Source: an uncultured bacterium
Lineage (GTDB): Bacteria; Acidobacteriota; Aminicenantia; Aminicenantales; Saccharicenantaceae
NCBI GenBank assembly: GCA_963805015.1
Contig: CAWDSL010000026.1
Coordinates: forward strand, 79,125 to 143,124
Reading direction: 5' to 3'
Length of the DNA: 64,000 nucleotides
Below are positions 8,901 to 33,003 of the stretch, piece after piece. The position numbers and the translations under genes were made by a program. The notes beneath the pieces are model-generated. The model saw nothing but the letters and a program-made list of their open reading frames with translations. It did not search any database and had not been told where the DNA came from. Each line of letters begins with the position of its first letter. Position 1 is the first letter of the stretch.

Positions 8901-9403
8901 GGACGGCAAGATCGTGATCAGGCCCGAGCTCGCGAGCGGGAATCTCTATACAGCGAAGGAATATGGCGATTTCGTCCTTCGCTTCGAGTTAAAGCTCACG
9001 CCGGCCGCCAACAACGGCCTGGGCATCCGCGCTCCGCTCGAGGGCGACGCCGCCTACGCCGGCATGGAACTCCAGATCCTCGAGGACGGCTCGCCCGTCT
9101 ATTGGAACCTCAGGCCCTACCAGTATCACGGCTCGATCTACGGCGTCGTTACCGGCGCGGCGCGGATTCCTCAGGCCGCCGGGGGAATGGAACACCGAAG
9201 AGGTCACGGTCAAGGGCCGGCGGGTCACCATCGTCGTCAACGGGGCGACCATCGTCGACGCCGACCTCGACGCCGCGAGCGCCGGCGGGACGATCGACGG
9301 CAACGACCATCCCGGATTGAAGCGGGCCTCCGGGCACATCGGCTTCCTGGGCCACGGCTCGCTCGTCGAATTCCGGAATATCCGGATCAGAGAGTTCAAG
9401 TAG
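5977..9403 (+). pseudogene. HEAT-repeat protein with two C-terminal DUF1080 (3-keto-disaccharide hydrolase-like) domains, frame broken near 9151
   Basis: Signal peptide, long Ala/Leu-rich HEAT-like repeats, then two DUF1080 units (GFVPLFDGRTLDGWKG.., GFAALFDGRDLEGWTG..). After ..HGSIYGVV an extra base (about 9151) shifts the frame. The +1 frame gives [31 protein letters not shown]...[23 protein letters not shown], stop at 9401-9403. Confidence 0.8.
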
Positions 9404-9461
9404 GAAGGCGGGCATGCCCGGTTTCGCCGTCGAAAACAGGCTGACGCGACCGGAAAAATGG

Positions 9462-9488
9462 GGAAATAGGTATCATGTCCCCCATTTT
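9462..9488 (+). repeat. 27-nt dispersed repeat (GGAAATAGGTATCATGTCCCCCATTTT), solo copy
   Basis: Identical 27-mer at 33161-33187, and an inverted copy with one mismatch at 33083-33109. Here it sits inside a larger hairpin (CTGACGC 9441-9447 / GCGTCAG 9494-9500) between convergent genes. Confidence 0.7.
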
Positions 9489-9496
9489 CGGGGGCG

Positions 9497-18475: not shown

Positions 18476-18768
18476 ATGTTGCATGAGCCAGCCGCGAAGT
18501 CGGGACCGGATCCCGCTTTTCTGTTCAAGAGGCGCCTGGGCGCCTGGATGTTCGTCCTCTACGCGCTCGTCTATACCGGATTCGTGGTCGTCAACCTGGT
18601 CCGGCCGGGCGCCATGGAAGCGTGATCTTCGGCGGGTTGAACCTGGCCGTCGTCTACGGCTTCGGCCTGATCATCTTCGCCCTCGTCCTGGCCCTCATCT
18701 ACAGCCGGGCCTGCGGCCGCCGCGAGAAGCGTCTCCACCAGGCCGATCCCCAGGGAGGCCGGTCATGA
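18476..18768 (+). pseudogene. DUF485 (YjcH-like) small membrane protein, frameshift near 18621
   Basis: ATG 18476 after GGAGGGAGAG gives MLHEPAAKSGPDPAFLFKRRLGAWMFVLYALVYTGFVVVNLVRPGAMEA, then a stop. The next frame continues VIFGGLNLAVVYGFGLIIFALVLALIYSRA.. and ends in an ATGA overlap with the actP start. Position before actP is classic. Confidence 0.75.
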
Positions 18769-20690
18769 ACGTCCTGTCGATCGTCCTGTTCGTCCTCTTC
18801 GTCGCCTTCGTCCTGGGCATCTCTTTCTACTTCGCCGGGCGGGCCAAGTCGGCCAGCGGGTATTACGCCGCCGGCGGCCGCATCCACTGGGGCGTCAACG
18901 GCATCGCTTTCGCCGGCGATTACCTCTCGGCCGCCTCGTTCCTGGGCATCTGCGGCATGATCGCCACGGCCGGATACGACGGCTTCCTCTACTCCATCGG
19001 CTACCTGGCCGGCTGGATCGTCGCCCTGTTCATCGTCGCCGAGCCGCTCAAGCGCCTGGGCAAGTACACGTTCACCGACGCCCTGGACGCCAATTACAAC
19101 CACCGCGGCATCAAGCTCATGGCCGCCATCAGCACCTTGCTCGTCTCCATCTGCTACCTCATCCCGCAGATGGTCGGCGCGGGCGTCCTGGTCACGCCGC
19201 TGCTCGGCCTGCCCCACGCCGTCGGGGTCATCCTCGTCGGCCTCATCGTCATCACCATCGTGGCCACGGCCGGCATGACCTCGACGACCTACGTCCAGTT
19301 CATCAAGGGCGCGCTCCTGCTCGTCTTCTCGTTCGTCCTGGTCACCGTCGTCCTCATCCGGGGCCTCTCGACCAAGCCCGACCAGGGCGGCCGGGTCCCC
19401 TACCGGGAATTCCGGACGCTGGCCGCGACGGAATCGGAGGGCGTCCTGGCCCTCGACGACCCGGCCTGGCAGATCGCCGCCGTGCGCGAGGTCAAGGGCC
19501 TCCGCTTCGTCAAGCTCCTGAGCGACGGCCGCGAGAGCTGGTGGAGGGCGGAGAAGGACGCGGCGACCGGGGCCCTGAAGCTCCAGGAATCCCAGTTCAC
19601 GGCCCGCTTGGCCGACGGCAGCCAGTGGGTCAACGGCAGCCCCGCGTCCAAGGAGAACGAGCTGGCCCAGGTCGGCAACATGGAGTCGATCGCGGGCAAG
19701 ACCGGGCCCGAGGCCGCGACCGGGAGCCTCAATCCCTTCAAGTTCCTCTCGCTCGTCGGCGACCCGAAAAGCCGGATCAAGCTTTGGAAGAACGCCTCCT
19801 TCGACGACAACGGCGGCCGGGTGACGGTCTACTATCCCGTCTTCGCGGCCGGCAACAAGGTCCTCCGGCCGGGCCAGCGCTTCAAGGTCGAGGGGACGAC
19901 GACCGACCGGATCGACTTCCTGTCGCTCATGCTGGCCCTGTTCCTGGGCACGGCCGCCCTGCCCCACATCCTCATCCGCTACTACACCGTCCCCAGCCCG
20001 GCCGCGGCCCGGAAATCGACCATCGTGGCCATCGCCGCCATCGGCTTCTTCTATATCCTGACCCTGTTCATGGGCCTGGGGGCGATGACCAACGGGACCG
20101 TCAACCTGCTCGACGACAACATGTCCGCGCCCCTGCTGGCCCGCTCGTTCGGGACCTTCCTGTTCTCGATGATCTCGGCCATCGCCTTCGCCACCGTGCT
20201 GGGCACGGTCAGCGGGCTGATCATCGCCGCCTCCGGCGCGGTCGCCCACGACCTGCTCGACCGCTTCGGCAAGGTCATCAAGAACGACAAGCAGAAGGTC
20301 AACGCCGGCAAGATCGTCGCCTTCGCCGTGGGCGCCCTGGCCATCGTCCTGGGGATCATCTTCAAGGGCGTCAACGTCACCTTCCTGGTCGGCCTGGCCT
20401 TCGCCGTGGCGGCCTCGGCCAACCTGCCGTCGATCGTCATGATGCTGTTCTGGAAGAGGACGACCGCCCAGGGCATCACCGCCTCGATCTTCGTCGGCGT
20501 CTTCTCGTCGATCGGCCTGATCCTCTTCTCGCCGACCATGTTCGAGCTCTACGGCAAGGACCCCCTGACGGCCCCGTTCCCCCTGAAGAATCCGGGCATC
20601 GTCTCCATCCCGCTGAGCTTCCTGACGCTCGTCGTCGTGTCCCTTCTCACCCGCAAAAAAGCGAAGAGCGAGGCGGCCCCGGCCGTCTGA
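18765..20690 (+). CDS. actP: cation/acetate symporter (solute:sodium symporter family)
   Basis: Starts MNVLSIVLFVLFVAFVLGISFYFAGRAKSASGYYAAGGRIHWGVNGIAFAGDYLSAASFLG, a typical ActP N-terminus. About 13-14 TM segments. Preceded by a DUF485 gene. Confidence 0.85.
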   Translation: MNVLSIVLFVLFVAFVLGISFYFAGRAKSASGYYAAGGRIHWGVNGIAFAGDYLSAASFLGICGMIATAGYDGFLYSIGYLAGWIVALFIVAEPLKRLGKYTFTDALDANYNHRGIKLMAAISTLLVSICYLIPQMVGAGVLVTPLLGLPHAVGVILVGLIVITIVATAGMTSTTYVQFIKGALLLVFSFVLVTVVLIRGLSTKPDQGGRVPYREFRTLAATESEGVLALDDPAWQIAAVREVKGLRFVKLLSDGRESWWRAEKDAATGALKLQESQFTARLADGSQWVNGSPASKENELAQVGNMESIAGKTGPEAATGSLNPFKFLSLVGDPKSRIKLWKNASFDDNGGRVTVYYPVFAAGNKVLRPGQRFKVEGTTTDRIDFLSLMLALFLGTAALPHILIRYYTVPSPAAARKSTIVAIAAIGFFYILTLFMGLGAMTNGTVNLLDDNMSAPLLARSFGTFLFSMISAIAFATVLGTVSGLIIAASGAVAHDLLDRFGKVIKNDKQKVNAGKIVAFAVGALAIVLGIIFKGVNVTFLVGLAFAVAASANLPSIVMMLFWKRTTAQGITASIFVGVFSSIGLILFSPTMFELYGKDPLTAPFPLKNPGIVSIPLSFLTLVVVSLLTRKKAKSEAAPAV

Positions 20691-20707
20691 CCGGACGCGC
20701 AAAAAAA

Positions 20708-20750
20708 GGGGCCGTCCCGGTCCGCGGTCATCGCGGTCCGGGACGGCCCC
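20708..20750. terminator. bidirectional intrinsic terminator between convergent actP and the AOS gene
   Basis: GGGGCCGTCCCGGTCCGCG-gtcat-CGCGGTCCGGGACGGCCCC: a 19-bp stem with one mismatch, flanked by AAAAAAA upstream and TTT downstream. Confidence 0.7.
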
Positions 20751-20770
20751 TTTCGATACTTACCTGTCCT

Positions 20771-22018
20771 TCACATCCCGTACTTGGCGATGATGTCCTG
20801 CTTGGTCTTGCCCAGGATGTCGAACGTCTTGCCGACCTTGGTGAACGCCGCGAGCGCCTTGTCGAGGTGGTGCGTCTCGTGGCCGGCCGAGATCTGGGTC
20901 CGGATGCGGGCCTGGCTCTGGGGAACGACCGGGAAGAAGAAGCCGATGGCGTAGATGCCCTCGTCGTAGAGGGCCCGGGAGAAGTCCTGGGCCAGCTTGG
21001 CGTTGAAGAGCATGACCGGGACGATGGGGGTGTCCCCTTCCTTGAGGACGAAGCCGGCCTCGGTCAGGCCCTTGCGCCAGTAGGCGGCGTTCCGCTCGAG
21101 CTTGTCGCGCCGCTCCGTCGACTTGGAGATGATGTCCATGACCTTGAGCACGCCGGCCACGACCACGGGGGCGATGGTGTTGGAGAACAGGTACGGCCGG
21201 GCCCGCTGGCGGCAGAGCTCGACCAGCTCGCGGCGGCCGCTGACGCAGCCCCCGGAGGCCCCGCCGAGGGCCTTGCCGAAGGTCGTGGTGATGACGTCCA
21301 TCTGGCCGACGACGCCGCACTTCTCGTGGGTGCCCCGGCCGGTCTTACCGATGAAGCCGGAGGAGTGCGATTCGTCGACCAGGACCATGGCGTCGTATTT
21401 CTGGCAGACCGCGGCCATCTCGTCGAGCTTGGCCGTGTCCCCGTCCATGGAGAAGACGCCGTCCGTGACCACCAGCTTGAGGCGCTTGTCGGCGTGGAGC
21501 TGCAGCTTCTCCTCGAGGTGTCCCATGTCGGAGTGCTTGATCGTGTCGTGCATGGCGCTGCAGAGGCGGATGCCGTCGACGAGCGAGGCATGGACGAGGC
21601 GGTCGGAGATGATGACGTCGTCCTTGGTCAGGATGGCCTCGAAGACGCCGGCGTTGGCGTCCATGCAGGAGGGGAAGAGGAGCGTGTCCTCGGTCCCCAG
21701 GAACTCGGTCAGCCGGTGCTCGAGCTCGCGGTGGATGTCCTGGGTGCCGCAGATGAAGCGGACCGAGGACATGCCGTAGCCGCGCGACTCCAGCCCCTCG
21801 TGCGCCGCCTGGACCACGTCGGGATGGCTCGACAGCCCGAGGTAATTGTTGGCGCACATATTGATGACCTTCTTGAGAGGGGCGCCGGCCGGGAACTCGA
21901 CCTCGATGTCGGCCGCCTGGGGCGAGTGGATGAACCGCTCCTGCTTGAAGAGTCCCGCCTCCTGGATGCCCTTGATCTGGGCCTGGTAAGTGCCGCGGAT
22001 CTTGTCGCTGTAGGCCAC
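20771..22018 (-). CDS. PLP-dependent alpha-oxoamine synthase, Kbl-like paralog (glycine C-acetyltransferase / serine palmitoyltransferase family)
   Basis: 415-aa ORF with a GTG start. Family motifs NNYLGL, SVRFICGTQ, TDGVFSMDGD, TFGKALGG (PLP lysine). Carries a C-terminal extension ..DILGKTKQDIIAKYGM that I do not recall in E. coli Kbl. Confidence 0.85.
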   Translation of the reverse strand: MAYSDKIRGTYQAQIKGIQEAGLFKQERFIHSPQAADIEVEFPAGAPLKKVINMCANNYLGLSSHPDVVQAAHEGLESRGYGMSSVRFICGTQDIHRELEHRLTEFLGTEDTLLFPSCMDANAGVFEAILTKDDVIISDRLVHASLVDGIRLCSAMHDTIKHSDMGHLEEKLQLHADKRLKLVVTDGVFSMDGDTAKLDEMAAVCQKYDAMVLVDESHSSGFIGKTGRGTHEKCGVVGQMDVITTTFGKALGGASGGCVSGRRELVELCRQRARPYLFSNTIAPVVVAGVLKVMDIISKSTERRDKLERNAAYWRKGLTEAGFVLKEGDTPIVPVMLFNAKLAQDFSRALYDEGIYAIGFFFPVVPQSQARIRTQISAGHETHHLDKALAAFTKVGKTFDILGKTKQDIIAKYGM

Positions 22019-22022
22019 GGTG

Positions 22023-22280
22023 CTATCCCTTCTTGGCCACGAAGCGCTCGACGAGCGAGACGATCTTGTTGACCGAGTCGAAGGCCTCGGGCGTGGCCTC
22101 GTCGTCGGGGATGGCGATGGCGTACTTGTTCTCGAGGAAGCGCTTGAGCGAGACCATCGAGAACGAGTCGACGATGCCGCCCGAGATGAGGGGCGTATCG
22201 TAGGTCAGCGGCTCGCTGTCGTCCTCCAGATACTCCTTGGTGACGTAGTTCAGGACGATGTCCTTGAGTACTTCGGCCAT
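22023..22280 (-). CDS. stand-alone acyl carrier protein
   Basis: 85-aa acidic protein with the phosphopantetheine-attachment motif GGIVDSFSMVSL. Lies 4 nt upstream of the AOS start. Confidence 0.8.
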   Translation of the reverse strand: MAEVLKDIVLNYVTKEYLEDDSEPLTYDTPLISGGIVDSFSMVSLKRFLENKYAIAIPDDEATPEAFDSVNKIVSLVERFVAKKG

Positions 22281-22300
22281 GATGACTCTCCTTTTTTATG

Positions 22301-24004
22301 TCAATCGTTTTCGAGCGTGGACGTGTCGCCGATCTCCTCGCCCCATTCCTTGGCGTGGAGGAGCCGGCGCATGATCTTGCCGCTCCGCGTCTTGGGGAGC
22401 GACGGAACGAACTCGATCTCCTGGGGCATGGCCAGGGGCGAGAGCTTCTTGCGGATGAAGTTCATGATCTCGAGGTCGAGGTCCTTGCTGGCCGTGAAGC
22501 CGGGCTTGAGCGTGACGAAGGCCTTGACCACCTCGAGGTTGATCGGGTCGGGCTTGGAGACGACGGCCGACTCGGCCACCGCCGGATGCTCGAGCAGGGC
22601 CGATTCGACCTCGAAGGGGCTGACCAGGTGGCCGGCCGTGTTGATGATGTCGTCGTCGCGGCCGGCGAACCAGAAGTAGCCGTCGGCGTCGAGCTTGGAC
22701 CGGTCGCCGGTGATGTACCAGCCGTTTCGGAATTTCTTATTGAAAGCCTCTTCGTTGTTCCAGTAGGTCCGCATGCGCGAGGGCCAGTCGAACTTGAGCC
22801 CGACCAGGCCGATCTTGCCGTGGGTCGTGTAGGGCTCGTTCTTGACCGGGTCGAGGACGGTCCCGGTGATGCCGGGGAAGGGCTTGCCCATGGAGCCCGG
22901 CCGGACCTCCATGTCCGGGTAGTTGCTGATGACGATGGAGCCCGTCTCGGTCTGCCAATAGGTGTCGTAGAAGGGCTTGCCGAAGACCTTCTGCGACCAG
23001 ACGACGGCCTCGGAGTTGAGCGGCTCGCCGACGCTGGCCAGGTGGCGGAGCGAGGACAGGTCGAACTTCTTGACGATCTCGTCGCCGGCCTTCATGAGCG
23101 ACCGGATGGCCGTCGGGGCCGAGTACCACATCGTCACCTTGCGCTTCTCGATCCATTTGTACCAGGCCTCGGCCGAGAAGCCGGCGTCGAGGACGCACTG
23201 GGTGACGCCCAGGGCGAAGGGGGCGATGATGCCGTAGGACGTGCCCGTGACCCAGCCGGGATCGGCCGTGCACCAGTAGATGTCGTCGTCGCGGATGTCG
23301 AGGACCCACTTGGCCGTCAGGTACTGGGAGATGAGCGAGTAGTGGACGTGCTTGACGCCCTTGGGCATGCCGGTCGTGCCCGAGGTGTAGTGGAGGACCG
23401 AGGGTGACTCGGCCGTCGTCGGGTGGACGTCGAACCGCTCGACGGGCGCGGACTTTTCGAGCGAGAAGGCGACCTCGCGGTCCTTGAGCGGCGTGACGCC
23501 GTCATGGTCGACGATGACGATGTGCCGGAGGTGGGGCAGCTTGTCCAGGATCTTGCGGACCTTGGGGGCATGCTTCTTCTGGGTGATGACGGCCGAGGTC
23601 TCGGCGTTGGCCAGGCGGACGAGGAGCGACTCGTCGCCGAAGGCCGAGAAGAGCGGCTGGGCGATGGCCCCGGTCTTGAGGATGCCCAGGAAGCCCAGGT
23701 AAAGCTCGGGGATGCGGTCCAGGAACAGGCAGACGCGCTCCTCGGGCTTGAGGCCGAGTCCGCGCAGGAAGGAGGCGATGGTGTTCGAGGCCAGGCGGAT
23801 GTCGTTATAGGTGTAGGTCTTTTCCGCCCCGGTGAAGCCTTCCCAGTAGAGGGCGACCTTGTCCCCCTTGCCCTGCTGGCAGATGCGGTCGGTGCAGTAC
23901 CAGCCGATGTTGATGGCGTCGCCGGGCTTCCAGCCGAGCTCCTTCTCGGCGATGGCCCAGCTGAAGTCCTTGACGCGTTCGTCGTAGGAGCCGATGTTCG
24001 ACAT
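22301..24004 (-). CDS. AMP-forming acyl ligase of the acetyl-CoA synthetase (AcsA) type
   Basis: Start MSNIGSYDERVKDF (ATG 24004, GAGAGAGGAA upstream). AMP-binding motifs YTSGTTGMPKG, TGDR. C-terminal tail LPKTRSGKIMRRLL..GDTSTLEND as in true acetyl-CoA synthetases. Confidence 0.85.
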   Translation of the reverse strand: MSNIGSYDERVKDFSWAIAEKELGWKPGDAINIGWYCTDRICQQGKGDKVALYWEGFTGAEKTYTYNDIRLASNTIASFLRGLGLKPEERVCLFLDRIPELYLGFLGILKTGAIAQPLFSAFGDESLLVRLANAETSAVITQKKHAPKVRKILDKLPHLRHIVIVDHDGVTPLKDREVAFSLEKSAPVERFDVHPTTAESPSVLHYTSGTTGMPKGVKHVHYSLISQYLTAKWVLDIRDDDIYWCTADPGWVTGTSYGIIAPFALGVTQCVLDAGFSAEAWYKWIEKRKVTMWYSAPTAIRSLMKAGDEIVKKFDLSSLRHLASVGEPLNSEAVVWSQKVFGKPFYDTYWQTETGSIVISNYPDMEVRPGSMGKPFPGITGTVLDPVKNEPYTTHGKIGLVGLKFDWPSRMRTYWNNEEAFNKKFRNGWYITGDRSKLDADGYFWFAGRDDDIINTAGHLVSPFEVESALLEHPAVAESAVVSKPDPINLEVVKAFVTLKPGFTASKDLDLEIMNFIRKKLSPLAMPQEIEFVPSLPKTRSGKIMRRLLHAKEWGEEIGDTSTLEND

Positions 24005-24027
24005 GAGCGATTCCTCTCTCGTGGGGA

Positions 24028-24411
24028 TTATGCGGTCTTCGTCTCGAGAACGACCACGGCCGAGGCCAGGTCCTTGATGTGCGTAAGCGAGACTTCCATG
24101 GCCGCGATGGCGTGGGCCTCGCAGAACTCCCTGACCTTGCCGTGGACGAAGAGCTCGGGCTTGCCTTGGGCGTTGTTGACGACCTCGATATCGGAGAACT
24201 TGTGGCCGCCCGTCCAGCCGGTGCCCATGGCCTTGAGGAAGGCCTCCTTGGCGGCGAAGCGGGCGGCGAAGTGCAGGGCCGGCCGGTGCTTGGATTCGCA
24301 GTAGGCGATCTCGATCGGGGTGAAGAGCTTGGTCTTGAGGCTCTCCGTGCGGACGAGCTTGTCCTCGACCCTTTGGACCTCGATGATGTCCGTTCCCGCT
24401 CCGAAGATCAA
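24028..24411 (-). CDS. acpS: holo-ACP synthase (4'-phosphopantetheinyl transferase, AcpS type)
   Basis: 127-aa ORF MIFGAGTDIIEVQRV...FAAKEAFLKAMGTG...ISLTH-like layout typical of AcpS. First gene of the operon. Confidence 0.85.
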   Translation of the reverse strand: MIFGAGTDIIEVQRVEDKLVRTESLKTKLFTPIEIAYCESKHRPALHFAARFAAKEAFLKAMGTGWTGGHKFSDIEVVNNAQGKPELFVHGKVREFCEAHAIAAMEVSLTHIKDLASAVVVLETKTA

Positions 24412-24463
24412 AGGCTGGCACGCCTTTCGTCGATGGATGTCCCGTCCGTAAAAACGGACCTTT

Positions 24464-24491
24464 ATTATAGATAAGCCCGGCCAAAAGTCAA
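24464..24491 (-). promoter_or_regulatory. sigma-70-type promoter for the acpS operon
   Basis: On the reverse strand: TTGACT (24491-24486), 16-nt spacer, TATAAT (24469-24464). About 50 nt upstream of the acpS start. Confidence 0.5.
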
Positions 24492-24508
24492 AAGGCGCGC
24501 CGCGCCGG

Positions 24509-24895
24509 TCAGAGCCGCTCGATAACGGCCCTGAGCTTGTCCCGGACTTCGAGGCCCACGGCGCCCAGGTCCTCGTTCTTGACGGCGGCCATGGAGGCCA
24601 AAGGGTCGATCGCCGCGACCTCGACCTGGCCGGGGGCGAGCTCCTGGACGATGACGCTGCAGGGCAGCATCGTGCCGATCTTGTCCTCGGCCTGGAGGGC
24701 CTTGTAAGCGAAGGGCGCGTTGCAGGCCCCGAGGATGCGGTAGGGCCGGAAGTCGACGCCGATCTTCTCCTGGAGCGTCTTCCGGACGTCGATATCGGTC
24801 AGGACGCCGAAGCCGTCCTTCTTGAGCTCGGCCTTGACCCGCTCGACGGCCTCGTCGAACGCCAACGAGATGGTCTTGTTGAAATAGTAGCTCAT
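24509..24895 (-). CDS. DUF302 domain protein
   Basis: 128-aa ORF. MSYYFNKTISLAFDEAVERVKAELKKDGFGVLTDIDV...YRILGACNP-like pattern typical of DUF302. Confidence 0.8.
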   Translation of the reverse strand: MSYYFNKTISLAFDEAVERVKAELKKDGFGVLTDIDVRKTLQEKIGVDFRPYRILGACNAPFAYKALQAEDKIGTMLPCSVIVQELAPGQVEVAAIDPLASMAAVKNEDLGAVGLEVRDKLRAVIERL

Positions 24896-25022: not shown

Positions 25023-26498
25023 CTATTTCGGCGCTTCGCCGAGCTTGATGCCTAAGGCGTCGGCGACGCCCTTGCCGTAGGCCTTGTCGGCCTTCAGGCA
25101 GTTGCCGATGTGCCGGAGCTTGACGGCCTTCGGGCGCATCGCCCATGTCGGCCGCGGTGTTCGCGAAAAGTGCCTTCTGTCTGGGCCGGCTTCATCAGCC
25201 GGAAGAGCTTGCCCGGCTGGGTGTAGTAATCGTCGTCGTCCTTGCGGAAATCCCAGCGGTCGGCGGCGCCCTCGAGGGCGAGCGGCGGCTCGGCGAAATC
25301 GGGCTGTTCCTTCCATTCGTCGTAGCTGTTGGGCTCGTAGCCGAGCGTGCTCCCCTGGTTGCCGTCGACCCGCATCTGGCCGTCCCGGTGGAAGCTGTGG
25401 ACCGGGCAGCGCGGCGCGTTCACGGGGATGAGGTGGTGATTGACCCCCAGGCGGTAGCGCTGGGCGTCGCCGTAGGAGAACAGCCGGCCCTGCAGCATCT
25501 TGTCCGGCGAGAAGCCGATCCCGGGGACGATGTTGGCCGGGTTGAAGGCGGCCTGCTCGACGTCGGCGAAGTAGTTGTCCGGGTTGCGGTTGAGTTCGAC
25601 GACGCCCACTTCGATGAGCGGGTAGTCCTTGTGGTACCAGACCTTGGTCAGGTCGAACGGATTGTAGGGCATCTTGGCGGCGTCCTTCTCCGGCATGACC
25701 TGGAAATACATCGTCCAGCGGGGGAAATCGCCCTTCTCGATGCTCTCGTAGAGGTCGCGCTGGTGGCTTTCGCGGTCCCTGCCGACCAGGGCCTCCGCTT
25801 CCGCGTCGGTCAGGTTCTTGATGCCCTGCTGGGTCCTCAGGTGGAACTTGACCCAGAAGCGCTCGTTCTTGGCGTTAAGGAGGCTATAGGCGTGGCTGCC
25901 GAAGCCGTGCATGTGCCGGTAGGTGGCCGGGATGCCGCGGTCGCTCATGACGATGGTCACCTGGTGCAGGGCCTCGGGCAGGGAGGTCCAGAAATCCCAG
26001 TTGTTCCGGGCGCTCCGCAGGTTCGTGCGCGGGTCCCGTCTTGACGGCGTGGTTCAGGTCGGGGAACTTGAGCGGGTCGCGCATGAAGAAGACGGGCGTG
26101 TTGTTGCCGACCAGGTCCCAGTTGCCCTCTTCCGTGTAGAACTTCATGGCGAAGCCCCGGATGTCCCGTTCCGCGTCGGCCGCGCCGCGCTCGCCGGCGA
26201 CCGTCGAGAAGCGGATGAACAGGTCGGTCTTCTTGCCCACGGCCGAGAAAACCTTGGCCTTGGTGAACCGCGTCACGTCCTTGGTGACCTTGAACGTGCC
26301 GAAGGCGCCCGAGCCCTTGGCGTGCATGCGGCGCTCGGGGATGACCTCCCGGTCGAAATGCCCCAGCTTCTCAAGGAACCAGACGTCCTGGAGCAGGGCG
26401 GGGCCGCGGGGCCCGGCCGTCATGGTGTTCTGGTTGTCGACGACGGGCGCACCGGCGACGGTCGTCAGCTTCTTTTTGCTTTCGCTTTTCTTTGCCAT
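25023..26498 (-). pseudogene. monofunctional heme catalase (small-subunit type) interrupted by three frameshifts
   Basis: Start [33 protein letters not shown] (ATG 26498, AAGGAGGAAG upstream). The catalase sequence continues across three frame changes at about 26039, 25180 and 25131 (pieces in ORFs 25884..26822, 25094..25960, 25023..25316). Ends ..[33 protein letters not shown]. Confidence 0.85.
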
Positions 26499-26536
26499 GT
26501 CTTCCTCCTTCTTATTTATTCGATGTGCCGGCCGGC

Positions 26537-27115
26537 TCAATAGTTCTCGGCCAGGATCTCGTAGTAGGCCCGGGGGTGCTTGCAGGCCGGGCACAGGGCC
26601 GGCGCTTCCGGGCCCTCGTGGACGTAGCCGCAGTTGGTGCAGTGCCACTTGACGGGCGCCGGGCGCTTGAAGACCTGGCCGGTCTCGATATTCGCGGCCA
26701 GCTTGCGATAGCGCTTCTCGTGGAATTCCTCCACTTCGGCGATCTCCTTGAAGGAGGCCGCGACCTCCGGGAAGCCCTCGGCCCGGGCGGTCTTCTCGAA
26801 CCCGGCGTAAAGGTCGCTCCATTCCATCTTCTCGCCGGCCGCCGCGGCCTCGAGGTTGGCCTTGGTGTCCCCGATCACGCCGGCCGGGTAGGCGGCGGTG
26901 ATCTCCAGATCGCCCCCTTCCAGGTGTTTGAAGAAGACCTTGGCGTGCTCCTTCTCGTTCTCGGCGGTCTCCGTGAAGATGGCGGCGATCTGTTCGTAGC
27001 CCGCCTTACGGGCCACTCCGGCGAAATAGGTGTAGCGGTTGCGAGCCTGCGACTCCCCGGCGAAGGCCTTCAGCAGGTTCTTCTCGGTCTCGGTGCCCTT
27101 GATGGATTTGCTCAT
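26537..27115 (-). CDS. rbr: rubrerythrin
   Basis: 192-aa ORF. Ferritin-like diiron N-domain ([22 protein letters not shown]..) plus a C-terminal rubredoxin motif CTNCGY..CPACKHP. Confidence 0.9.
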
Positions 27116-27128
27116 GCGTCATGACTCC

Positions 27129-27542
27129 TTAAGGATTATTTTTTAGCGATGGCCGATGGCAGTCCGCGCACCGGCCCCGGAATTCCGTCTGATGCCCGGA
27201 AACGATGAACCCCGTGCGTTTCGAGATCCTGTCGTCGAGCCCCGGGTCGACGGGCTCGTCCAGGTCGTAGACCCGCCCGCAGGCTTCGCATCGGAAGTGA
27301 TAATGGGCGCCCTGGCAAATCTCATACCGGGACAGCGTGCCGCGGATGTCCAGGACCGATACCTTCCCGGTCCCGATCAGGACCTGCAAGTTGCGGTAGA
27401 CCGTGCCTTTGCTGATATTCGGGATGACCTTGCGGACGGAGTCATAAATACGGTCGGCCGTCGGATGCGATCTCGTTTTCCCCAGGAAGTCGAGGATGGC
27501 CTTCCGCTGCTTGGTATCTCTAGGGGCCTTATTGATATTCAT
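27129..27542 (-). CDS. Fur-family transcriptional repressor, PerR-like
   Basis: 137-aa ORF. Winged-helix N-domain (RKAILDFL..HPTADRIYDSVRKVIPNISKGTVYRNLQVL), then a metal-site HYHFRC..C and C-terminal CxxC. First gene of the operon with rbr and the catalase. Confidence 0.8.
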   Translation of the reverse strand: MNINKAPRDTKQRKAILDFLGKTRSHPTADRIYDSVRKVIPNISKGTVYRNLQVLIGTGKVSVLDIRGTLSRYEICQGAHYHFRCEACGRVYDLDEPVDPGLDDRISKRTGFIVSGHQTEFRGRCADCHRPSLKNNP

Positions 27543-27611: not shown

Positions 27612-30600
27612 CTACTTCTTCGGATAGGCCGGCTTGGGCGCGAACTTCAACGGATTGGCATTAATCTTTTCCAGCATGACCGCGATGGCCTTCTCGAGCT
27701 GGAGATCGCGGCCGGCCATGACCGAGCCGGGGTCGTTGTCGACCAGGATGTCGGGGTCGGCGCCGTGGTTCTCGACCAGCCACTTCCCGTCTTTGCCGTA
27801 AAAGGCGTTGTTCGACTGATTGACCGAGCCGTTGTCGATCGTCAGCTGCGCGTTGAGGATGCCGACCAGGCCGCCCCAGGACGGGACGCCGACGACCGGG
27901 CCCAGCTTGCGGGCCTTGAAGTGCTCGACGAAGGCCTCGCCGTCCGAGCCGTTGTTCTCGTTGGAGATGACCACGTAGTTGCCGTTGCCGGCCGATCCGG
28001 GATAGCGGAACGGGACCATGTCCCGGAGGTTGTTGTAGGCCGTGAGCTCCCGCTCGAGCTTGTCGATGAGGAAGTACTCCGTCCAGCCTCCGGAGTTGCG
28101 CCGGACGTCGATGATGACGCCCTCCTTGTACCGGAAAGCCCGCCAGTACTTGTCGAACTCGCCGATGCCGCCGCCGCCCATGGCGTTGATGTGCATGTAG
28201 CCGACGCGGCCGCCCGTGGCCTTGTCGATGGCCTTGATGTTGTCGTCGATCCAGCGGAAGTAGCGCATCTGCGCGTCGCTGCGGACGGGCTCGATCTCGT
28301 ACGTCTTGGCCCCCGTCATCGACGGCGCCGCGTTGACCGTGACCTCGATCTTCTTCCCGGCCGTCGTCTGGAGGAGCTTGAAGTAGTCGTCGCCGGCCTT
28401 GAGCGGGGTCCCTTCGATGGCCAGGAGGAAGTCCCCTTCCTTCACGGTGATGTCGGGCCGGACGAGCGGCCCGGGCAGATTGAGATTGATGTCGGTCGGG
28501 CCGTAGATCCTGGCCAGCCTGTAGAGGCCCGAGGCCTTGTCGGCGACGAGGTCCGCGCCGAGAAGCCCGGTGAAAACGGGCGAAGCGGGCGTGGCGCCGG
28601 GACCGAAGTCGCCGCCGCCGACGTAGGTGTGCGAGACGCACAGCTCGCCGACCATCTGGGACAGGACCCAATTGAGCTCGGCCCGCGAGGACAGCTCCGG
28701 GATGTAGGCCCGGTACCTCTCGCCCATGGCCTTCCAGTCGCGGCCGTGGAAGCCGGCGTCGTAGAAGAAGTCGCGGTACCAGCGCCAAGCGTCGTTGAAG
28801 ATCTGGTGCCACTCCTTCTGGAGGTCGACCTTGTAGACGAGGCCGGAGAGGTCGAGCTTGTCCCCTGCCGATTTGGCGGCGAAGGCCTTGTCGACGGGGG
28901 TCGTGTAGAAGTCGGCGTCGCGGCGGACGAGGAGCGTGCCGCCGTCGGGCGACAGGGAGAAGTCGCGGACCTTTCCGTCGAGGACCGCATCCTTGCGACC
29001 GGCCGTGTCGAAGACGTGGAGCGACCACTTGGTCGCGCCCGTAGGCTTGGAGATGTCCTCGTACTCGTCCTCGGTGAACTCGTCGACCGCGAGCCAGAGG
29101 ACCTTACCCTTTCCGGCCTTGAGGTGGAAGTAGTTGCCGGCGGGGACGGGCAGCGGGAACGTCCTCTTGACCAGGCCCTCCGCGTCGATCCGGAAGGGCA
29201 CGGGGGCGGCCTTCTTGTCGTCCTTCTCCCCGGGCTCGCCGGCGAAGGGCGGGGCCTCGCCGGCCCGGAGCTGGACGGCCATGACCTGCTGGGGCGTCGC
29301 GATGACGTGGTTGTCTTCGTAGAAGTCCATACGCAGGGCGAAGTTCCGGCTCGAGACGTAGTAGAGATAATCGCCGCTCGCGTCGAAAGCCGGATAGAGG
29401 TTGTCGTAGAAATCGGTCGTCGCCGCGACCTTCTTCCCGGTCTCGATGTCGTAGAGGAAGATCCGGCTGTTGCGGTTGGCCTGGACGAAGCTGTAGGCGA
29501 TCCACCGGGAGTCGGGCGACCAGACGTAGTCGGCGATCTCCCAGGTGAACTCGTCGTTCTTCATCTGGTTGGAGGAATCGGCTTTGACCAGCTTCTTGGT
29601 CGCGAGGTCGACCCAGAAGATCGCATAGTCCTTGTTGCCGAAGAGGATCTTCCGGCCGTCGGGCGACCAGAGGAGCTTGTAGACGGTCCGGTCGAGCCCG
29701 GTCGTTATTTGCGTCCAGTCGCCGCCGGCCGCGGGCTGGGTGTAGAGCTGGTAGTCGCCGCTCCTGTCGCTGAAGAACGCGACGGTCTTCCCGTCCGGCG
29801 AGAGGGCCGGATACATCTCGCGCGTGCCCGGGGTCATGGACAGGTTCTCGGCCGGGCCGCGGCCCGTGGGGACGCGGAAGACGTCGCCGCGCGCCGCCAG
29901 GACGACGGCCTGGCCGCCGTCGCCGACGCCGGCCGTCTGGATGTAGTCCTTGGGATTGATGACCCGGTCGCGCAGGGCCCAACGGTCAGACGGGACCTTG
30001 ACGGAGATCCGCGTGTCCGCGCCGGACGCGACGTCGAGGACATGGAGGCGGCCGTCCTGGACGTAGACGATGGACCGGCCGTCCGTGTGCGGGAACATGA
30101 CGTCGAAGTCGTCGTATTTCGTGACCGGGGCGGCGTCATTCGTGCCGAGCTTCTGGGCGTATAGGTTGGAGATGCCGTTGCCGCGGTCGGAGACGAAGTA
30201 CATGACCCCGCCGGCCCACATCGGGTAGCTGTTCTTGCCGACGTAGTCCGTGACCGGGGTGTAGGTCTTGGCGACGGCGTCGTAGAGCCAGATGTCCTGG
30301 TACTGGCCGCCCTTGTAGCGCTTCCAGTAGTACTCCTCGTTGCCGCGCCGGCAGAAGAGGAACTGGTGCCTCTCGGGGATGAAGCTGACGAGGACGCCGC
30401 GGTCGAGGGGCAGGCGCACGGGGGCGCCGCCCTTGACCCCGACCGAAAAGAGGTTCGGGTCGCGGCCGACGACGTTCTCGAAGCTCGACCGGAAGACGAT
30501 CTCGGAGCCGTCGGGCGTCCAGGCGACGACCTGGGCACCGCCGGGGTTGTGGGTCAAGCGGACGGGGGCGCCGCCCTCGGCCGGCATCAGGTAGACGGCC

Positions 30601-30860
30601 GGGGCGCCGTCGTACGTGGCCGTGAACGCGAGCCACCGGCCGTCGGGCGAGAACTTGGCGAAGCTCTCGGTCCCGGGGAAGGTGGTCAGACGGGTGGCGA
30701 CGCCGCCCTTGGCCGGGGCGGCCCACAGGTCGGACTCGTAGGTGAAGGCGATCCGGTCGCCGCTGATCGTCGGATAGGTGAAGAACCGGCCCTCGTCGGC
30801 GGCGACGGCCGCGGCGGCGATGACGAGGATCGCCAGGAACACGCTCAGGGATCTTTTCAT
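27612..30860 (-). CDS. tricorn protease homolog (S41 peptidase with beta-propeller and PDZ domains)
   Basis: 1082-aa ORF with a signal peptide. N-terminus ..YPTISGDRIAFTYESDLW..LTTFPGTESFAKFSPDGRWLAF is typical of tricorn-like proteases. C-terminal S41 domain. Confidence 0.85.
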   Translation of the reverse strand: MKRSLSVFLAILVIAAAAVAADEGRFFTYPTISGDRIAFTYESDLWAAPAKGGVATRLTTFPGTESFAKFSPDGRWLAFTATYDGAPAVYLMPAEGGAPVRLTHNPGGAQVVAWTPDGSEIVFRSSFENVVGRDPNLFSVGVKGGAPVRLPLDRGVLVSFIPERHQFLFCRRGNEEYYWKRYKGGQYQDIWLYDAVAKTYTPVTDYVGKNSYPMWAGGVMYFVSDRGNGISNLYAQKLGTNDAAPVTKYDDFDVMFPHTDGRSIVYVQDGRLHVLDVASGADTRISVKVPSDRWALRDRVINPKDYIQTAGVGDGGQAVVLAARGDVFRVPTGRGPAENLSMTPGTREMYPALSPDGKTVAFFSDRSGDYQLYTQPAAGGDWTQITTGLDRTVYKLLWSPDGRKILFGNKDYAIFWVDLATKKLVKADSSNQMKNDEFTWEIADYVWSPDSRWIAYSFVQANRNSRIFLYDIETGKKVAATTDFYDNLYPAFDASGDYLYYVSSRNFALRMDFYEDNHVIATPQQVMAVQLRAGEAPPFAGEPGEKDDKKAAPVPFRIDAEGLVKRTFPLPVPAGNYFHLKAGKGKVLWLAVDEFTEDEYEDISKPTGATKWSLHVFDTAGRKDAVLDGKVRDFSLSPDGGTLLVRRDADFYTTPVDKAFAAKSAGDKLDLSGLVYKVDLQKEWHQIFNDAWRWYRDFFYDAGFHGRDWKAMGERYRAYIPELSSRAELNWVLSQMVGELCVSHTYVGGGDFGPGATPASPVFTGLLGADLVADKASGLYRLARIYGPTDINLNLPGPLVRPDITVKEGDFLLAIEGTPLKAGDDYFKLLQTTAGKKIEVTVNAAPSMTGAKTYEIEPVRSDAQMRYFRWIDDNIKAIDKATGGRVGYMHINAMGGGGIGEFDKYWRAFRYKEGVIIDVRRNSGGWTEYFLIDKLERELTAYNNLRDMVPFRYPGSAGNGNYVVISNENNGSDGEAFVEHFKARKLGPVVGVPSWGGLVGILNAQLTIDNGSVNQSNNAFYGKDGKWLVENHGADPDILVDNDPGSVMAGRDLQLEKAIAVMLEKINANPLKFAPKPAYPKK

Positions 30861-30974: not shown

Positions 30975-32186
30975 TCAAGCGGACGCCGGGATGGCGCCGA
31001 GGCGGCGGCCGACCTTGCGGAACTTGTCGAGGGCGAATTCGATCTGGTCCGTCGAGTGGGCCGCGCTGATCTGGACGCGGATCCGGGCCTTGCCCACCGG
31101 GACGATGGGATAGCTGAAGCCGATGACGTAGACGCCCTCTTCGAGCAGGGCGCTCGAGAAGGATTGGCTGAGCCGGGCGTCGTCGGGGAGATGGCCGAAG
31201 AGGACCGGTACGATGGGGTGGATGCCGGGGACGATCCGGAAGCCGGCCTGCTCCATGCCGGCGCGGAAGAGCCGGGTGTTGGCCATGAGCCTCTCGCGCA
31301 GCTCGGCCGACTCGCCGAGGATCTTGAGGACCTCGACCGTGGCCCCGGTGATGGCCGGCGACAGCGAGTTGGAGAAGAGGTAGGGGCGCGATCGCTGGCG
31401 CAGGAACTCGACGATCTCGCGGCGGCCGGCGACGCAGCCGCCGGAGGCCCCGCCGAGGGCCTTGCCGAAGGTCGTGACGATGAGGTCGACCCGGTCCAGG
31501 CAGCCGCAGTGCTCGTGCGTGCCGCGGCCGTTCGGGCCGATGAAGCCCGTGGCGTGGGAGTCGTCGACGAGGACCAGGGCCTCGTATCTCTCGGCCAGGT
31601 CGCAGATCCTGTCCACCTGGGCGATGATGCCGTCCATGGAAAAGACGCCGTCCGTGACGATGAGCTTGAACCTGGCTTCGCGGGCCTCGATGAGCTGGTC
31701 CTCGAGGTCGTCCATGTCGTTGTTGCGGTAGACGAACCGCTTGGCCTTGGCCAGGCGGACGCCGTCGATGATGGAGGCGTGGTTGAGCTCGTCGGAAATG
31801 ATGGCGCATTTCTCGTCGAGCAGGGGCTCGAAGACGCCGCCGTTGGCGTCGAAGGCCGACGAGTAGAGGAGGACGTCGTCCATGCCCAGGAACTCGGCCA
31901 GGCGGCGCTCGAGCTCCCGGTGGACCTGCTGGGTGCCGCAGATGAAGCGGACCGAGGCCAGGCCGAAGCCCCAGCGGAAGAAGGCGTAGTTGGCGGCGGC
32001 CATGACCCGGGGCTCGTTGCAAAGGCCCAGGTAATTGTTGGCGCAGAAGTTGAGGACCTTGGCGCCGGACTCGGTCCGGATCTCGACGCCCTGCGGGGTC
32101 TCGAGAACGCGTTCCTTCTTATAGAGGCCGCGGGCCCGGATCTGGTCGAGCTCCGCGGCGATGTGGTCTTTGAATTTTCCGTACAT
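30975..32186 (-). CDS. kbl: 2-amino-3-ketobutyrate CoA ligase (glycine C-acetyltransferase)
   Basis: Start MYGKFKDHIAAELDQIRARGLYKKERV (ATG 32186 after GGAGAG). Tracks E. coli Kbl closely: NNYLGL, SVRFICGTQ, NHASIIDGVRLAKAKR, TDGVFSMDG, TFGKALGGASGG. Confidence 0.85.
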   Translation of the reverse strand: MYGKFKDHIAAELDQIRARGLYKKERVLETPQGVEIRTESGAKVLNFCANNYLGLCNEPRVMAAANYAFFRWGFGLASVRFICGTQQVHRELERRLAEFLGMDDVLLYSSAFDANGGVFEPLLDEKCAIISDELNHASIIDGVRLAKAKRFVYRNNDMDDLEDQLIEAREARFKLIVTDGVFSMDGIIAQVDRICDLAERYEALVLVDDSHATGFIGPNGRGTHEHCGCLDRVDLIVTTFGKALGGASGGCVAGRREIVEFLRQRSRPYLFSNSLSPAITGATVEVLKILGESAELRERLMANTRLFRAGMEQAGFRIVPGIHPIVPVLFGHLPDDARLSQSFSSALLEEGVYVIGFSYPIVPVGKARIRVQISAAHSTDQIEFALDKFRKVGRRLGAIPASA

Positions 32187-32232
32187 GGGCGCTCTCCGTT
32201 CGAAGCCGGGGATATTATACACGTCCCCCGGA

Positions 32233-33003
32233 TCATTTCCGGTGGACGAGCGAAGGAGAGGCCTGGGCGGTCGGCCAGATGACGACGTCGCTGACGTTGA
32301 CGTGGAGCGGCCGCGTGGCGCACCAGACGACGGCCTCGGCGATGTCGTCCGGGCCGAGCGGCGTCAGGCCCTGATAGACCTTGCCGGCCCGCTCCGCGTC
32401 GCCGTGGAAGCGGACCAAGCTGAACTCCGTCTCGACCATGCCCGGGGCGACCTCGCTCACCCGGAGGGGCGTCCCGTTGAGGTCCAGGCGCAGGCCTTTG
32501 GATAGGGTCCGGACGGCGAACTTCGTGGCGCAATAGACGGCCCCGGCCGGATAGACCTCGTGCCCGGCGATCGAGCCGATGTTGATGATGTGCCCACTCC
32601 CCCGTTCGATCATTCCGGGAATGACGGCCCGGCTGACGTAGAGGAGCCCCTTGACGTTGGTGTCGATCATCTCTTCCCAATCGCTGACCAGCCCGCCGGG
32701 CAGCTTGTCCAGGCCGCGGCTGAGGCCGGCGTTGTTGACCAGGACCTCGATGGCCCGCCACTCCGGCGGAAGGGCGGAGATCGCCGTGTCGACGGCGCGC
32801 TGGTCGCGGACGTCCAGTGGGAAATGGCGGACGGCGACCTTATATTCCGACTCGAGCGACCGGGCCAGATCCTCCAGCCGCTCTCTCCGGCGCGCGCACA
32901 TCAGGACCCTGGCCCCGAGGCCGGCGAAGGCCCGGGCCGTCGACGCCCCTATCCCGGAGCTCGCTCCGGTGACGAATACGGTCTTGTCTTTCATGGACAG
33001 CAT
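32233..33003 (-). CDS. short-chain dehydrogenase/reductase, YdfG-like (NADP-dependent 3-hydroxy acid / Ser / allo-Thr dehydrogenase type)
   Basis: 256-aa ORF. TGASSGIG cofactor motif, NNAG, catalytic YxxxK (YCATKFAV). Overall layout as in YdfG-type SDRs. Immediately upstream of kbl. Confidence 0.8.
   Translation of the reverse strand: MLSMKDKTVFVTGASSGIGASTARAFAGLGARVLMCARRRERLEDLARSLESEYKVAVRHFPLDVRDQRAVDTAISALPPEWRAIEVLVNNAGLSRGLDKLPGGLVSDWEEMIDTNVKGLLYVSRAVIPGMIERGSGHIINIGSIAGHEVYPAGAVYCATKFAVRTLSKGLRLDLNGTPLRVSEVAPGMVETEFSLVRFHGDAERAGKVYQGLTPLGPDDIAEAVVWCATRPLHVNVSDVVIWPTAQASPSLVHRK

Follow-up and report, generated by a model that had tools for sequence, protein, structure and literature searches.

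An operon encoding an acetate-type ligase, a dedicated carrier protein, and a Kbl-type synthase suggests a carrier-dependent step in threonine/glycine metabolism of uncultured bacteria

Introduction

The closest described systems are those in which a ligase charges a private carrier protein that in turn serves a dedicated acyl-transferring enzyme. In Caulobacter, the system consists of AasR, AcpR, and Spt (CC_1165, CC_1163, and CC_1162, respectively), and AasR acylates only AcpR, not coenzyme A (CoA); in Caulobacter and its relatives, Spt prefers acyl-AcpR, and phosphopantetheinylation of the AcpS type is needed (PMC9386255). The ligase SbzL loads a substituted acetate onto the 84-residue carrier SbzG, which feeds a different kind of transferase (PMC11685415). 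Here, we describe a four-gene operon with a comparable layout in a stretch of 64,000 nucleotides (“the window”; contig CAWDSL010000026.1, positions 79,125 to 143,124 of the forward strand, assembly GCA_963805015.1) from an uncultured bacterium of the Saccharicenantaceae (Acidobacteriota). The operon encodes a phosphopantetheinyl transferase (PPTase) of the AcpS type, an AMP-forming ligase of the AcsA type, a small carrier protein, and an alpha-oxoamine synthase (AOS) of the Kbl subfamily, an enzyme dependent on pyridoxal 5′-phosphate (PLP). An earlier reading of the DNA, made from the letters alone (the sequence-only reading), had named Spt with its own acyl carrier protein (ACP) and synthetase as the precedent, which is a fair comparison as far as the logic of the system is concerned (PMC9386255).

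On balance, we favor, with some reservation, the interpretation that the operon encodes a variant of the Kbl step in threonine/glycine metabolism that depends on a carrier protein and in which acetate would be converted to an acetyl-S-carrier thioester. The sequence comparisons suggest a CoA-independent variant of a textbook pathway that is as yet undescribed. Our literature search found no description of an Acs-ACP-Kbl cluster, no acetyl-ACP-dependent Kbl, and no report of the cassette in Aminicenantes or WOR-3, in line with the novelty suspected in the sequence-only reading. In public annotation, the parts appear as acetate–CoA ligase, acyl carrier protein, and glycine C-acetyltransferase.

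Organization of the operon

The four genes are packed on the minus strand between positions 24491 and 20707, in the order acpS, ligase, carrier, and AOS. The features are as follows.

24464–24491, minus strand: sigma-70-like promoter TTGACT-N16-TATAAT, matching at 11 of 12 positions
24444–24459, minus strand: small hairpin GTCCGTTTTTACGGAC, just past the −10 box, where the 5′ end of the transcript is predicted to lie
24028–24411, minus strand: acpS, holo-[acyl-carrier-protein] synthase (AcpS-type PPTase), 127 residues, TTG start (TIGR00516, PF01648)
22301–24004, minus strand: AcsA-type AMP-forming ligase, 567 residues, ATG at 24004 (NF003313)
22023–22280, minus strand: carrier protein, 85 residues, containing GGIVDSFSMVSL (assigned from a fold model; no Pfam family)
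20771–22018, minus strand: Kbl-subfamily AOS, 415 residues, GTG start (TIGR01822)
20707–20752, strand not assigned: long palindrome, rich in GC, with T7 after it on the minus strand, read from the sequence as a candidate bidirectional terminator

The genes are separated by approximately 20, 20, and 4 nt, the last gap lying between the stop codon of the carrier gene and the GTG of the AOS gene. The start of the ligase is the ATG at 24004; the long open reading frame (ORF) listed for it extends upstream through acpS in another frame. The promoter is the sole match in the region 20500–24700, for which shuffled sequences gave a mean of 0.4 matches, and the GC content of the window is approximately 61 to 74%. 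The palindrome sits between the AOS gene and a convergent ActP-like gene and is flanked by T and A runs. A compact four-gene operon, a good promoter of this sequence, and an AOS start 4 nt past the ACP had all been proposed in the sequence-only reading; the coordinates, the gaps, and the promoter search bear this out, and the description of the operon proved right in every detail that could be checked.

Rfam searches returned nothing credible in the window region (E ≤ 1) or in 10 diverse loci (gathering threshold), and neither a riboswitch nor a leader was found. The palindrome at 20707–20752 did surface in the search at E ≤ 1 as a hairpin-type chance match, and the hairpin at 24444–24459 matched no Rfam family. 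RNA elements provided no clue to a ligand.

Conservation of the ligase–carrier–AOS triad

A collection containing one genome per species was scanned with a narrow alignment of the carrier, using two patterns within the same gene. At least 592 matching stretches were found and, since two patterns fall in each gene, the number of genomes is best given as “hundreds,” not 592. Lineage labels were taken from the best 80 of the at least 592 matches, all of which are metagenome-assembled genomes (MAGs). They comprise Aminicenantes, Zixibacteria, Bacteroidales, Delongbacteria, Cloacimonadales, Ignavibacteriales, Elusimicrobia, Caldisericales, and Bipolaricaulota, or about ten phylum-level lineages according to the submitters' labels. 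No cultured host was found, all hosts being MAGs. The GC content of the loci spans 32 to 68%, which indicates that the hosts are truly diverse. The AOS of the window is 88 to 97% identical to many metagenomic proteins, mostly from Aminicenantes, all of which are labeled glycine C-acetyltransferase.

The order ligase–carrier–AOS, on one strand, was found in 82 related genome loci wherever the contig reaches. The same order recurs in 14 metagenomic loci of a more distant carrier branch (57–64% identity to the carrier of the window) and in seven of the seven loci that were reached via the AOS, including WOR-3 and Eisenbacteria genomes. Across loci, the carrier is conserved at 57 to 96%. The sequence-only reading had proposed synteny as a check, and the triad was retained in every relative examined, with acpS as a frequent fourth gene. 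The acpS gene directly precedes the ligase in 55 related loci, and does so in the WOR-3 and Eisenbacteria loci as well, although not universally.

We compared constraint on the proteins between the window and Saccharicenans-type relatives, using the same loci throughout. The three triad proteins showed nearly the same identity to the window (ligase, 77–80%; carrier, 77–82%; AOS, 79–82%), and lower values were obtained for UvrA (62–66%) and AcpS (55–63%). Over all relatives, identity between AcpS of the window and its counterparts is only 28 to 91%, and AcpS evolves much faster than the triad.

In the 32%-GC, Delongbacteria-labeled locus L078 (1046–6951), approximately 6 kb with ORFs of 229 and 1740 residues separates a ligase fragment from the carrier gene; no other interruption of the triad was seen. 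In locus L021 (7324–8517), the AOS after the carrier matches Kbl models in two stretches and the ligase gave no full match, and this cassette is probably frameshifted or degraded.

The ligase resembles acetyl-CoA synthetase except at the A8 motif

The ligase passes the equivalog cutoff of the acetate–CoA ligase model NF003313 (752.2 bits; cutoff 729), and its homologue in locus L087 reaches 792 bits with the same model. Its best PDB match is Bacillus subtilis AcsA (9g79), which aligns over nearly the full length (E = 1e-169), whereas long-chain ligase models score far below cutoff (303 versus 476 bits, and lower). The Acs tail PKTRSGKIMRR..GDTSTLE is present, and its PKTRSGKIMRR segment, with the catalytic Lys of the SGK motif, occurs in all cassette ligases. 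Based on this tail, the sequence-only reading had called the ligase a true acetyl-CoA synthetase type and not a long-chain type, which agrees with the AcsA alignment, with the scores of the long-chain models, and with the retention of the pocket Trp described next.

Acs enzymes are restricted to acetate and propionate by a near-universal Trp in the acyl pocket (Trp414 in the Salmonella [Se] enzyme and Trp416 in that of Methanothermobacter thermautotrophicus [Mt]) (PMC10455477). The corresponding pocket motif, DTYWQTETG, is found in 58 of 71 cassette ligases, and YF replaces YW in six. The Trp of this motif probably corresponds to Trp414, and both positions of the pair are aromatic here; the segments GWVTG and VGEP, both present in the ligase, presumably form the rest of the acetate pocket.

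A consistent difference was found in the A8 motif. Of 71 cassette ligases, 70 read (A/G)GHLV(S/G), with Leu, as does the WOR-3 branch, and in the remaining one the motif was not found. True Acs enzymes have SG(H/E)R(L/V)G at this site, as was seen in B. subtilis AcsA and in the 8rpk enzyme, and the Salmonella sequence is of this form as well. The Leu replaces the Arg that is numbered 526 in Salmonella and 528 in M. thermautotrophicus. This Arg contacts the phosphate of the acyl-adenylate in the conformation that forms the thioester, and its replacement in M. thermautotrophicus Acs makes the enzyme unsaturable for CoA or lowers kcat 130- to 326-fold, with smaller effects in Salmonella Acs (PMC10455477). 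The Arg-to-Leu change is thus fixed and sets the family apart from Acs in the half-reaction in which the thiol takes part.

The scores also fit the main rival explanation, in which both enzymes are ordinary and CoA-dependent, the ligase being an acetyl-CoA synthetase, the AOS a second Kbl, and the carrier an accessory, regulatory, or unrelated protein. This explanation would account for the fact that both proteins exceed NCBIfam equivalog cutoffs, for the near-full-length match to a characterized AcsA, for the association with acetate transporters, which is classic for acs, for the complete retention of the Kbl active-site residues, and for the lack of any other Acs within the 64-kb window. 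It sits poorly with a carrier gene that lies between the two enzymes in every locus, despite the spread in GC content and a carrier conservation of 57 to 96%, and with the family-wide Leu at the A8 position. Two properties of the AOS also argue against it, namely its separate clade with ten fixed differences from canonical Kbl, and the redundancy of a second CoA-dependent Kbl where a canonical Kbl adjoins the cassette. We consider this explanation rather doubtful.

The carrier resembles type II peptidyl carrier proteins

The carrier matches no Pfam family at E ≤ 0.001. A structural model generated with AlphaFold2 has a mean predicted local distance difference test score (pLDDT) of 91.4 and contains helices at residues 2–17, 39–53, and 70–84. 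Ser39, within the motif GGIVDSFSM, is located at the start of helix 2 in the model and is the predicted phosphopantetheine site. The nearest neighbors in fold are the type II peptidyl carrier proteins (PCPs) PigG and PltL, DltC, and a glycyl carrier protein (TM scores of 0.7–0.88), and PDB entry 7r49 is among the structural matches. Profile searches likewise gave PCPs, including a Bmp1-type carrier (E = 4e-17 to 1e-7). DltC is a carrier that is served by AcpS.

Identity to Escherichia coli AcpP is only 32%, over 41 residues, and the carrier is therefore not the housekeeping ACP. Judged from its model and profile matches, the carrier resembles type II PCPs, not AcpP, and the private ACP of the sequence-only reading thus stands as a dedicated carrier with a PCP-like fold. 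The family is narrow, with 63 clusters at 50% identity reaching E ≤ 1e-10 among 1.8 billion representatives. The best NCBIfam match was the model ACP_for_OlsHI, at 58 bits against a cutoff of 130. We considered an ornithine-lipid ACP and rejected it on this score; moreover, a dependence on such an ACP is not described in the OlsH/OlsI paper.

The AcpS encoded by the first gene scores well above the cutoffs of TIGR00516 (95.1 bits; cutoff 59.8) and TIGR00556 (93.6 bits; cutoff 45.35) and matches PF01648. The operon-encoded PPTase, which the sequence-only reading had counted among the unusual features, is thus present and common beside the triad, but it is not universal and may be a housekeeping enzyme.

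The AOS retains the Kbl active site within a separate clade

Both Kbl equivalog models are passed by the AOS (TIGR01822, 563.9 bits, cutoff 493; NF005394, 561.7 bits, cutoff 460), and the WOR-3 homologue scores 626 bits with the Kbl equivalog. The best PDB matches are the Kbl structures 7bxp, 7v58, and 1fc4. With the Spt equivalogs, it reaches 309.8 bits (cutoff 640), 288 bits (cutoff 500), and 245.7 bits (cutoff 670), and the protein also falls far below the BioF, ALAS, and CqsA models. The earlier description of the AOS as Kbl-like and not Spt-like is therefore well founded.

The residues N52, V81, H138, S187, D212, H215, T243, K246, L274, F275, and R370 of Cupriavidus necator Kbl are kept without exception by the 70 cassette AOS proteins compared. 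In the C. necator enzyme, these include the PLP Lys, the catalytic His, Ser, and Asp, the ligands of the glycine carboxylate, and the cavity residues V81, L274, and F275 (PMC9814548). Since all of them are invariant, the amino-acid substrate is most likely glycine and the acyl group is most likely small. The sequence-only reading had left the partner open between glycine, serine, and threonine; of these, glycine is retained, and serine and threonine are disfavored because the glycine-binding residues are all kept.

In an identity-based tree (unweighted pair group method with arithmetic mean [UPGMA], a crude, distance-based method) that included C. necator Kbl, the 7v58 Kbl, and canonical Kbls from the same genomes, the cassette AOS proteins formed a clade of their own, to which none of these Kbls belonged. 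As to whether the AOS belongs with orthodox Kbl, a question raised in the sequence-only reading, the answer is thus mixed; the curated hidden Markov models (HMMs) place it inside the Kbl family, and the crude tree places it in its own clade. Ten substitutions that are invariant in the cassette AOS are absent from canonical Kbl. They include Asn to Val immediately before the catalytic His, Tyr-Ser-x-x-Phe to Phe-Pro-x-x-Met in the SxFDAN loop that binds the PLP phosphate, and Leu to Cys and Ser to Ala just upstream of the cavity residues L274 and F275. The C-terminal extension noted earlier is real and kept across the clade; the conserved tail ILGKTKxEIIxxYG makes the proteins 14 to 17 residues longer than Kbl. 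The WOR-3 branch repeats the AOS hallmarks that were checked, namely SDRLVHAS, LCRQRARPYLFSN, and, where found, LFPSCMDAN.

A lipid pathway, in which the product of the triad would be a long-chain base of the sphingoid type or some other aminolipid of the membrane, as with Spt, AcpR, and AasR, is suggested by the shared logic of ligase, private ACP, and AOS in Caulobacter (PMC9386255) and by the carrier's best NCBIfam match being an ornithine-lipid ACP model. The scores run against it (246–310 bits versus 500–670 for Spt and 58 versus 130 for the ornithine-lipid ACP), as do the AcsA-type ligase with its closed acetate pocket and the intact small cavity of the Kbl type. Based on the HMM scores and pocket residues, we rejected a sphingolipid or long-chain function; a sphingoid or lipid role is highly improbable and effectively excluded.

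It is also conceivable that the carrier holds another cargo, such as propionate, glycolate, or an amino acid (e.g., glycine), from which the AOS would make a different small aminoketone, for example, a precursor of a signal or a pyrazine. The relationship of the carrier to the aminoacyl and peptidyl carriers PigG, PltL, and DltC and the glycyl carrier protein is consistent with such cargo, and so are the fixed second-shell changes in the AOS (Asn to Val by the catalytic His and Phe to Met in the PLP-phosphate loop) and the six ligases with YF for YW. We nevertheless regard this idea as improbable, because most ligases keep the Trp that limits Acs to acetate or propionate (PMC10455477) and because the first-shell Kbl cavity, including the ligands of the glycine carboxylate, is invariant. 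The different product, possibly a new aminoketone, that the sequence-only reading had envisaged is accordingly disfavored; with all catalytic and glycine-binding residues of Kbl kept, ordinary Kbl chemistry is most likely.

Additional AOS-family genes accompany the cassette in some loci. A third such gene occurs just downstream of the cassette AOS in Zixibacteria- or Ignavibacteria-labeled loci (L027, 8570–9994; L031, 9020–10255; L040, 2607–3221); its products are 32 to 38% identical to Kbl and score below the NCBIfam cutoffs for Kbl, BioF, Spt, ALAS, and CqsA. In loci L046, L056, L058, L063, L073, L078, and L093, a tandem second Kbl directly follows the cassette AOS (at about 8250–9870 in full-length loci). 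These tandem proteins have the canonical residues at most clade-specific positions, yet the Trp and Ala changes of the cassette AOS, as well as its C-terminal tail, recur in them, and by sequence they look like intermediates between Kbl and the cassette AOS.

Genes that recur beside the cassette

A canonical Kbl is adjacent to the cassette in approximately 25 loci, being encoded upstream of acpS in some and immediately downstream of the cassette AOS in others. The acetate transporter SatP (Gpr1/Fun34/YaaH) is encoded downstream of the AOS in 19 loci, immediately so in most, and an ActP-like symporter adjoins the cassette in seven loci (the window and six relatives). In the WOR-3 branch, a bona fide L-threonine 3-dehydrogenase gene (tdh) lies directly upstream of acpS (TIGR00692, 471 bits; cutoff 458); four further loci have homologues with 72 to 83% identity, and in others the Tdh-like dehydrogenases are more distant. 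Homologues of a YdfG-like short-chain dehydrogenase/reductase (SDR) are encoded upstream of the cassette in eight Aminicenantes loci. These recurrent tdh, kbl, and acetate-transporter genes indicate that the module belongs with the metabolism of threonine, glycine, and acetate.

Clustering of the neighboring ORFs revealed no recurrent tailoring, reductase, acyltransferase, or lipid genes. The lack of reductase and acyltransferase partners is a further point against a lipid product, and neighbors of the tdh, kbl, and acetate-transporter kind instead of tailoring enzymes speak against other cargo on the carrier. A lipid or secondary-metabolite setting is not what the loci indicate; tdh, canonical kbl, SatP, and ActP next to the cassette point to central threonine/glycine/acetate metabolism.

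Other clustered neighbors are lineage-specific and include UvrA, MgsA, MntP, and an ORF of approximately 890 residues, which has no NCBIfam match in locus L033; an ORF of this size in L052 is DUF5916. In WOR-3, a flavoprotein of the DAO family (SoxB/ThiO-like, below cutoffs) follows the AOS (L112, 10421–11551; L113, 2296–3426) and may be a glycine-oxidizing partner.

Genes surrounding the operon in the window

Three neighbors in the window relate to acetate or threonine metabolism.

18765–20690, plus strand: ActP/MctC-like cation/monocarboxylate (acetate) symporter, convergent with the operon (MctC, 432 bits; ActP, 395 bits)
30975–32186, minus strand: canonical kbl, glycine C-acetyltransferase (NF005394, 607 bits; cutoff 460)
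32233–33003, minus strand: YdfG-like SDR, directly upstream of the canonical kbl (best match NF007829, 258 bits, below the cutoff of 411)

Both scores of the symporter are below the curated cutoff. The protein matches the models in two pieces (residues 1–198 and 362–635) separated by an unmatched insertion of approximately 160 residues and is an unusual member of its family. The canonical Kbl is 51% identical to the cassette AOS. The sequence-only reading had placed the operon next to an acetate permease locus and had noted a second, canonical kbl, and both observations hold. This kbl is preceded by the SDR and not by a classical Zn-dependent tdh; the SDR is a candidate (allo)threonine or 3-hydroxy-acid dehydrogenase, and the two genes (30975–33003) may form an SDR-type (allo)threonine dehydrogenase/Kbl pair.

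The minus-strand genes that separate the cassette from the canonical kbl encode rubrerythrin, a Fur/PerR-like regulator, and a tricorn-like protein of 1082 residues consisting of a TolB propeller plus a peptidase (26537–27542 and 27612–30860). A catalase gene at 25094–26543 (minus strand) is split by a frameshift, with the N-terminal part (MAKKSESKK...DLNHAVK) in ORF 25884–26822 and the C-terminal part in ORF 25094–25960, and is either a pseudogene or an assembly error. Desulfoferrodoxin genes adjoin the cassette in the relatives L001 and L002.

Proposed function

The comparisons establish, at the level of predicted proteins, a conserved core of three genes, often joined by a fourth, in which an acetate-type adenylating enzyme and a dedicated carrier are combined with a Kbl-type active site. 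In the mechanism that we propose, AcpS would convert the 85-residue apo-carrier to the holo form at Ser39, the PPTase and the site being assigned by sequence and model. The ligase, which contains the acetate pocket and the adenylation motifs, would adenylate acetate and hand the acetyl moiety over to the thiol of the carrier's phosphopantetheine, instead of or in preference to CoA; we infer this transfer from the invariant adjacency of the genes and the loss of the Acs A8 Arg. The AOS would then catalyze the reaction of glycine and acetyl-S-carrier to 2-amino-3-ketobutyrate and HS-carrier, or its reverse, with the carrier as the presumed thioester partner. The recurrent neighbors suggest that 2-amino-3-ketobutyrate would be linked to threonine by Tdh or the SDR and that acetate would cross the membrane through SatP or ActP.

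The cycle could run in either direction. In the anabolic direction, a private pool charged at the expense of ATP (to AMP and PPi) would push the unfavorable Claisen condensation, so that acetate and glycine would yield threonine or aminoacetone and the neighboring CoA-dependent Kbl would be catabolic. A nearly fully acetylated carrier pool would drive the condensation and leave the CoA pool undisturbed, and this option would explain the coexistence with a CoA-dependent Kbl. Formation of threonine by coupled E. coli Kbl and Tdh was reportedly observed by Marcus and Dekker in 1993. In the catabolic direction, threonine would give glycine and acetyl-S-carrier, from which acetate would be released by reversal of the ligase, and this would fit the classical role of Tdh and Kbl. 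Reverse operation of an AMP-forming Acs has been reported for Syntrophus.

Several points weigh against a carrier-dependent Kbl step. The ligase and the AOS both pass curated thresholds of CoA-dependent enzymes, so that, as far as their sequences go, use of CoA is possible. A canonical CoA-dependent Kbl is often encoded next to the cassette, which sequence alone does not explain. The Arg-to-Leu change is not a known or proven signature of carrier loading; DltA and the adenylation domains of nonribosomal peptide synthetases (NRPSs) keep Arg at the A8 position, and as carrier-loading domains often do so, the change is no proof of carrier loading. Ligases of the short AcsA type already lack the Arg191/Arg194 loop for CoA, which makes that feature uninformative. 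No fusions of the carrier to the ligase or the AOS were found, longer representatives being frameshift chimeras or Bmp1-like carrier–hydrolase proteins. In addition, acpS may be a housekeeping copy, and the phylum labels are those of the submitters, some being clearly unreliable (e.g., “Eubacteriales”).

Extending the carrier-dependent Kbl step, we tentatively raise the possibility that many uncultured anaerobic lineages run central threonine/glycine/acetate metabolism partly on a private, protein-bound thioester pool in place of CoA. In these organisms, the Acs-derived ligase would hold the carrier in a fully acetylated state at the expense of ATP (to AMP and PPi), the Kbl-derived enzyme would thereby run synthetically (from acetate and glycine via 2-amino-3-ketobutyrate to threonine), and the neighboring CoA-dependent Kbl would run catabolically. 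By submitter labels, the lineages concerned are Aminicenantes, WOR-3, Zixibacteria, Delongbacteria, sediment Bacteroidales, and others.

If the carrier replaces CoA, the use of dedicated carriers would extend beyond lipid and natural-product pathways to the partitioning of flux in small-molecule primary metabolism, and there would be a way to choose the direction of the Kbl reaction that does not depend on the acetyl-CoA pool. Metabolic models of abundant sediment and digester bacteria may then misassign acetate and threonine fluxes, given the hundreds of MAGs annotated with acetate–CoA ligase and glycine C-acetyltransferase. As small, soluble proteins with simple sequence hallmarks, the components lend themselves to direct tests of the hypothesis in vitro.

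Comparison with known systems

Like AasR/AcpR/SPT of Rhodobacteria, the cassette encodes an ANL-family ligase, a private carrier, and a PLP enzyme of the AOS family together. It differs in that the ligase is an acetate activator of the AcsA type, the AOS is of the Kbl type (acting on glycine and a C2 unit), and the carrier is PCP-like; it lies among genes for tdh, kbl, and acetate transporters instead of ceramide genes, and its hosts are uncultured anaerobes. With the Tdh-Kbl pathway of E. coli and C. necator (1fc4, 7bxp; PMC9814548), the cassette shares an AOS that passes Kbl models and keeps the catalytic and cavity residues and that, in relatives, shares its operon with tdh, a canonical kbl, or both. 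The separate clade of the AOS, its ten substitutions and C-terminal tail, and the carrier and ligase genes that always precede it set it apart from that pathway. The ligase has the pocket Trp, the adenylation motifs, the Lys of PKTRSGK, and the acetate permease association in common with B. subtilis AcsA (9g79; NF003313), but it has Leu for Arg in the A8 motif and is always followed by a carrier gene.

The closest relatives of the carrier, in sequence and fold, are found among the pairs PltF/PltL, PigI/PigG, DltA/DltC, and SbzL/SbzG. Those pairs belong to secondary metabolism or cell-wall modification, and their ligases are NRPS-like or other ANL enzymes, none of which feeds a Kbl-type AOS. 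In central catabolism, CitC of citrate lyase and MadH of malonate decarboxylase carry out ATP-dependent acetylation of a protein-bound thiol. The resemblance to these two is one of analogy only, as they belong to a different enzyme family, use a different prosthetic group, and involve no PLP enzyme. From these comparisons, the cassette appears to work like the AasR/AcpR/SPT triad, yet it is not a member of that system. It is best classed as a new use of an already known logic of ligase, private carrier, and AOS, here applied to a C2 unit and glycine within central metabolism.

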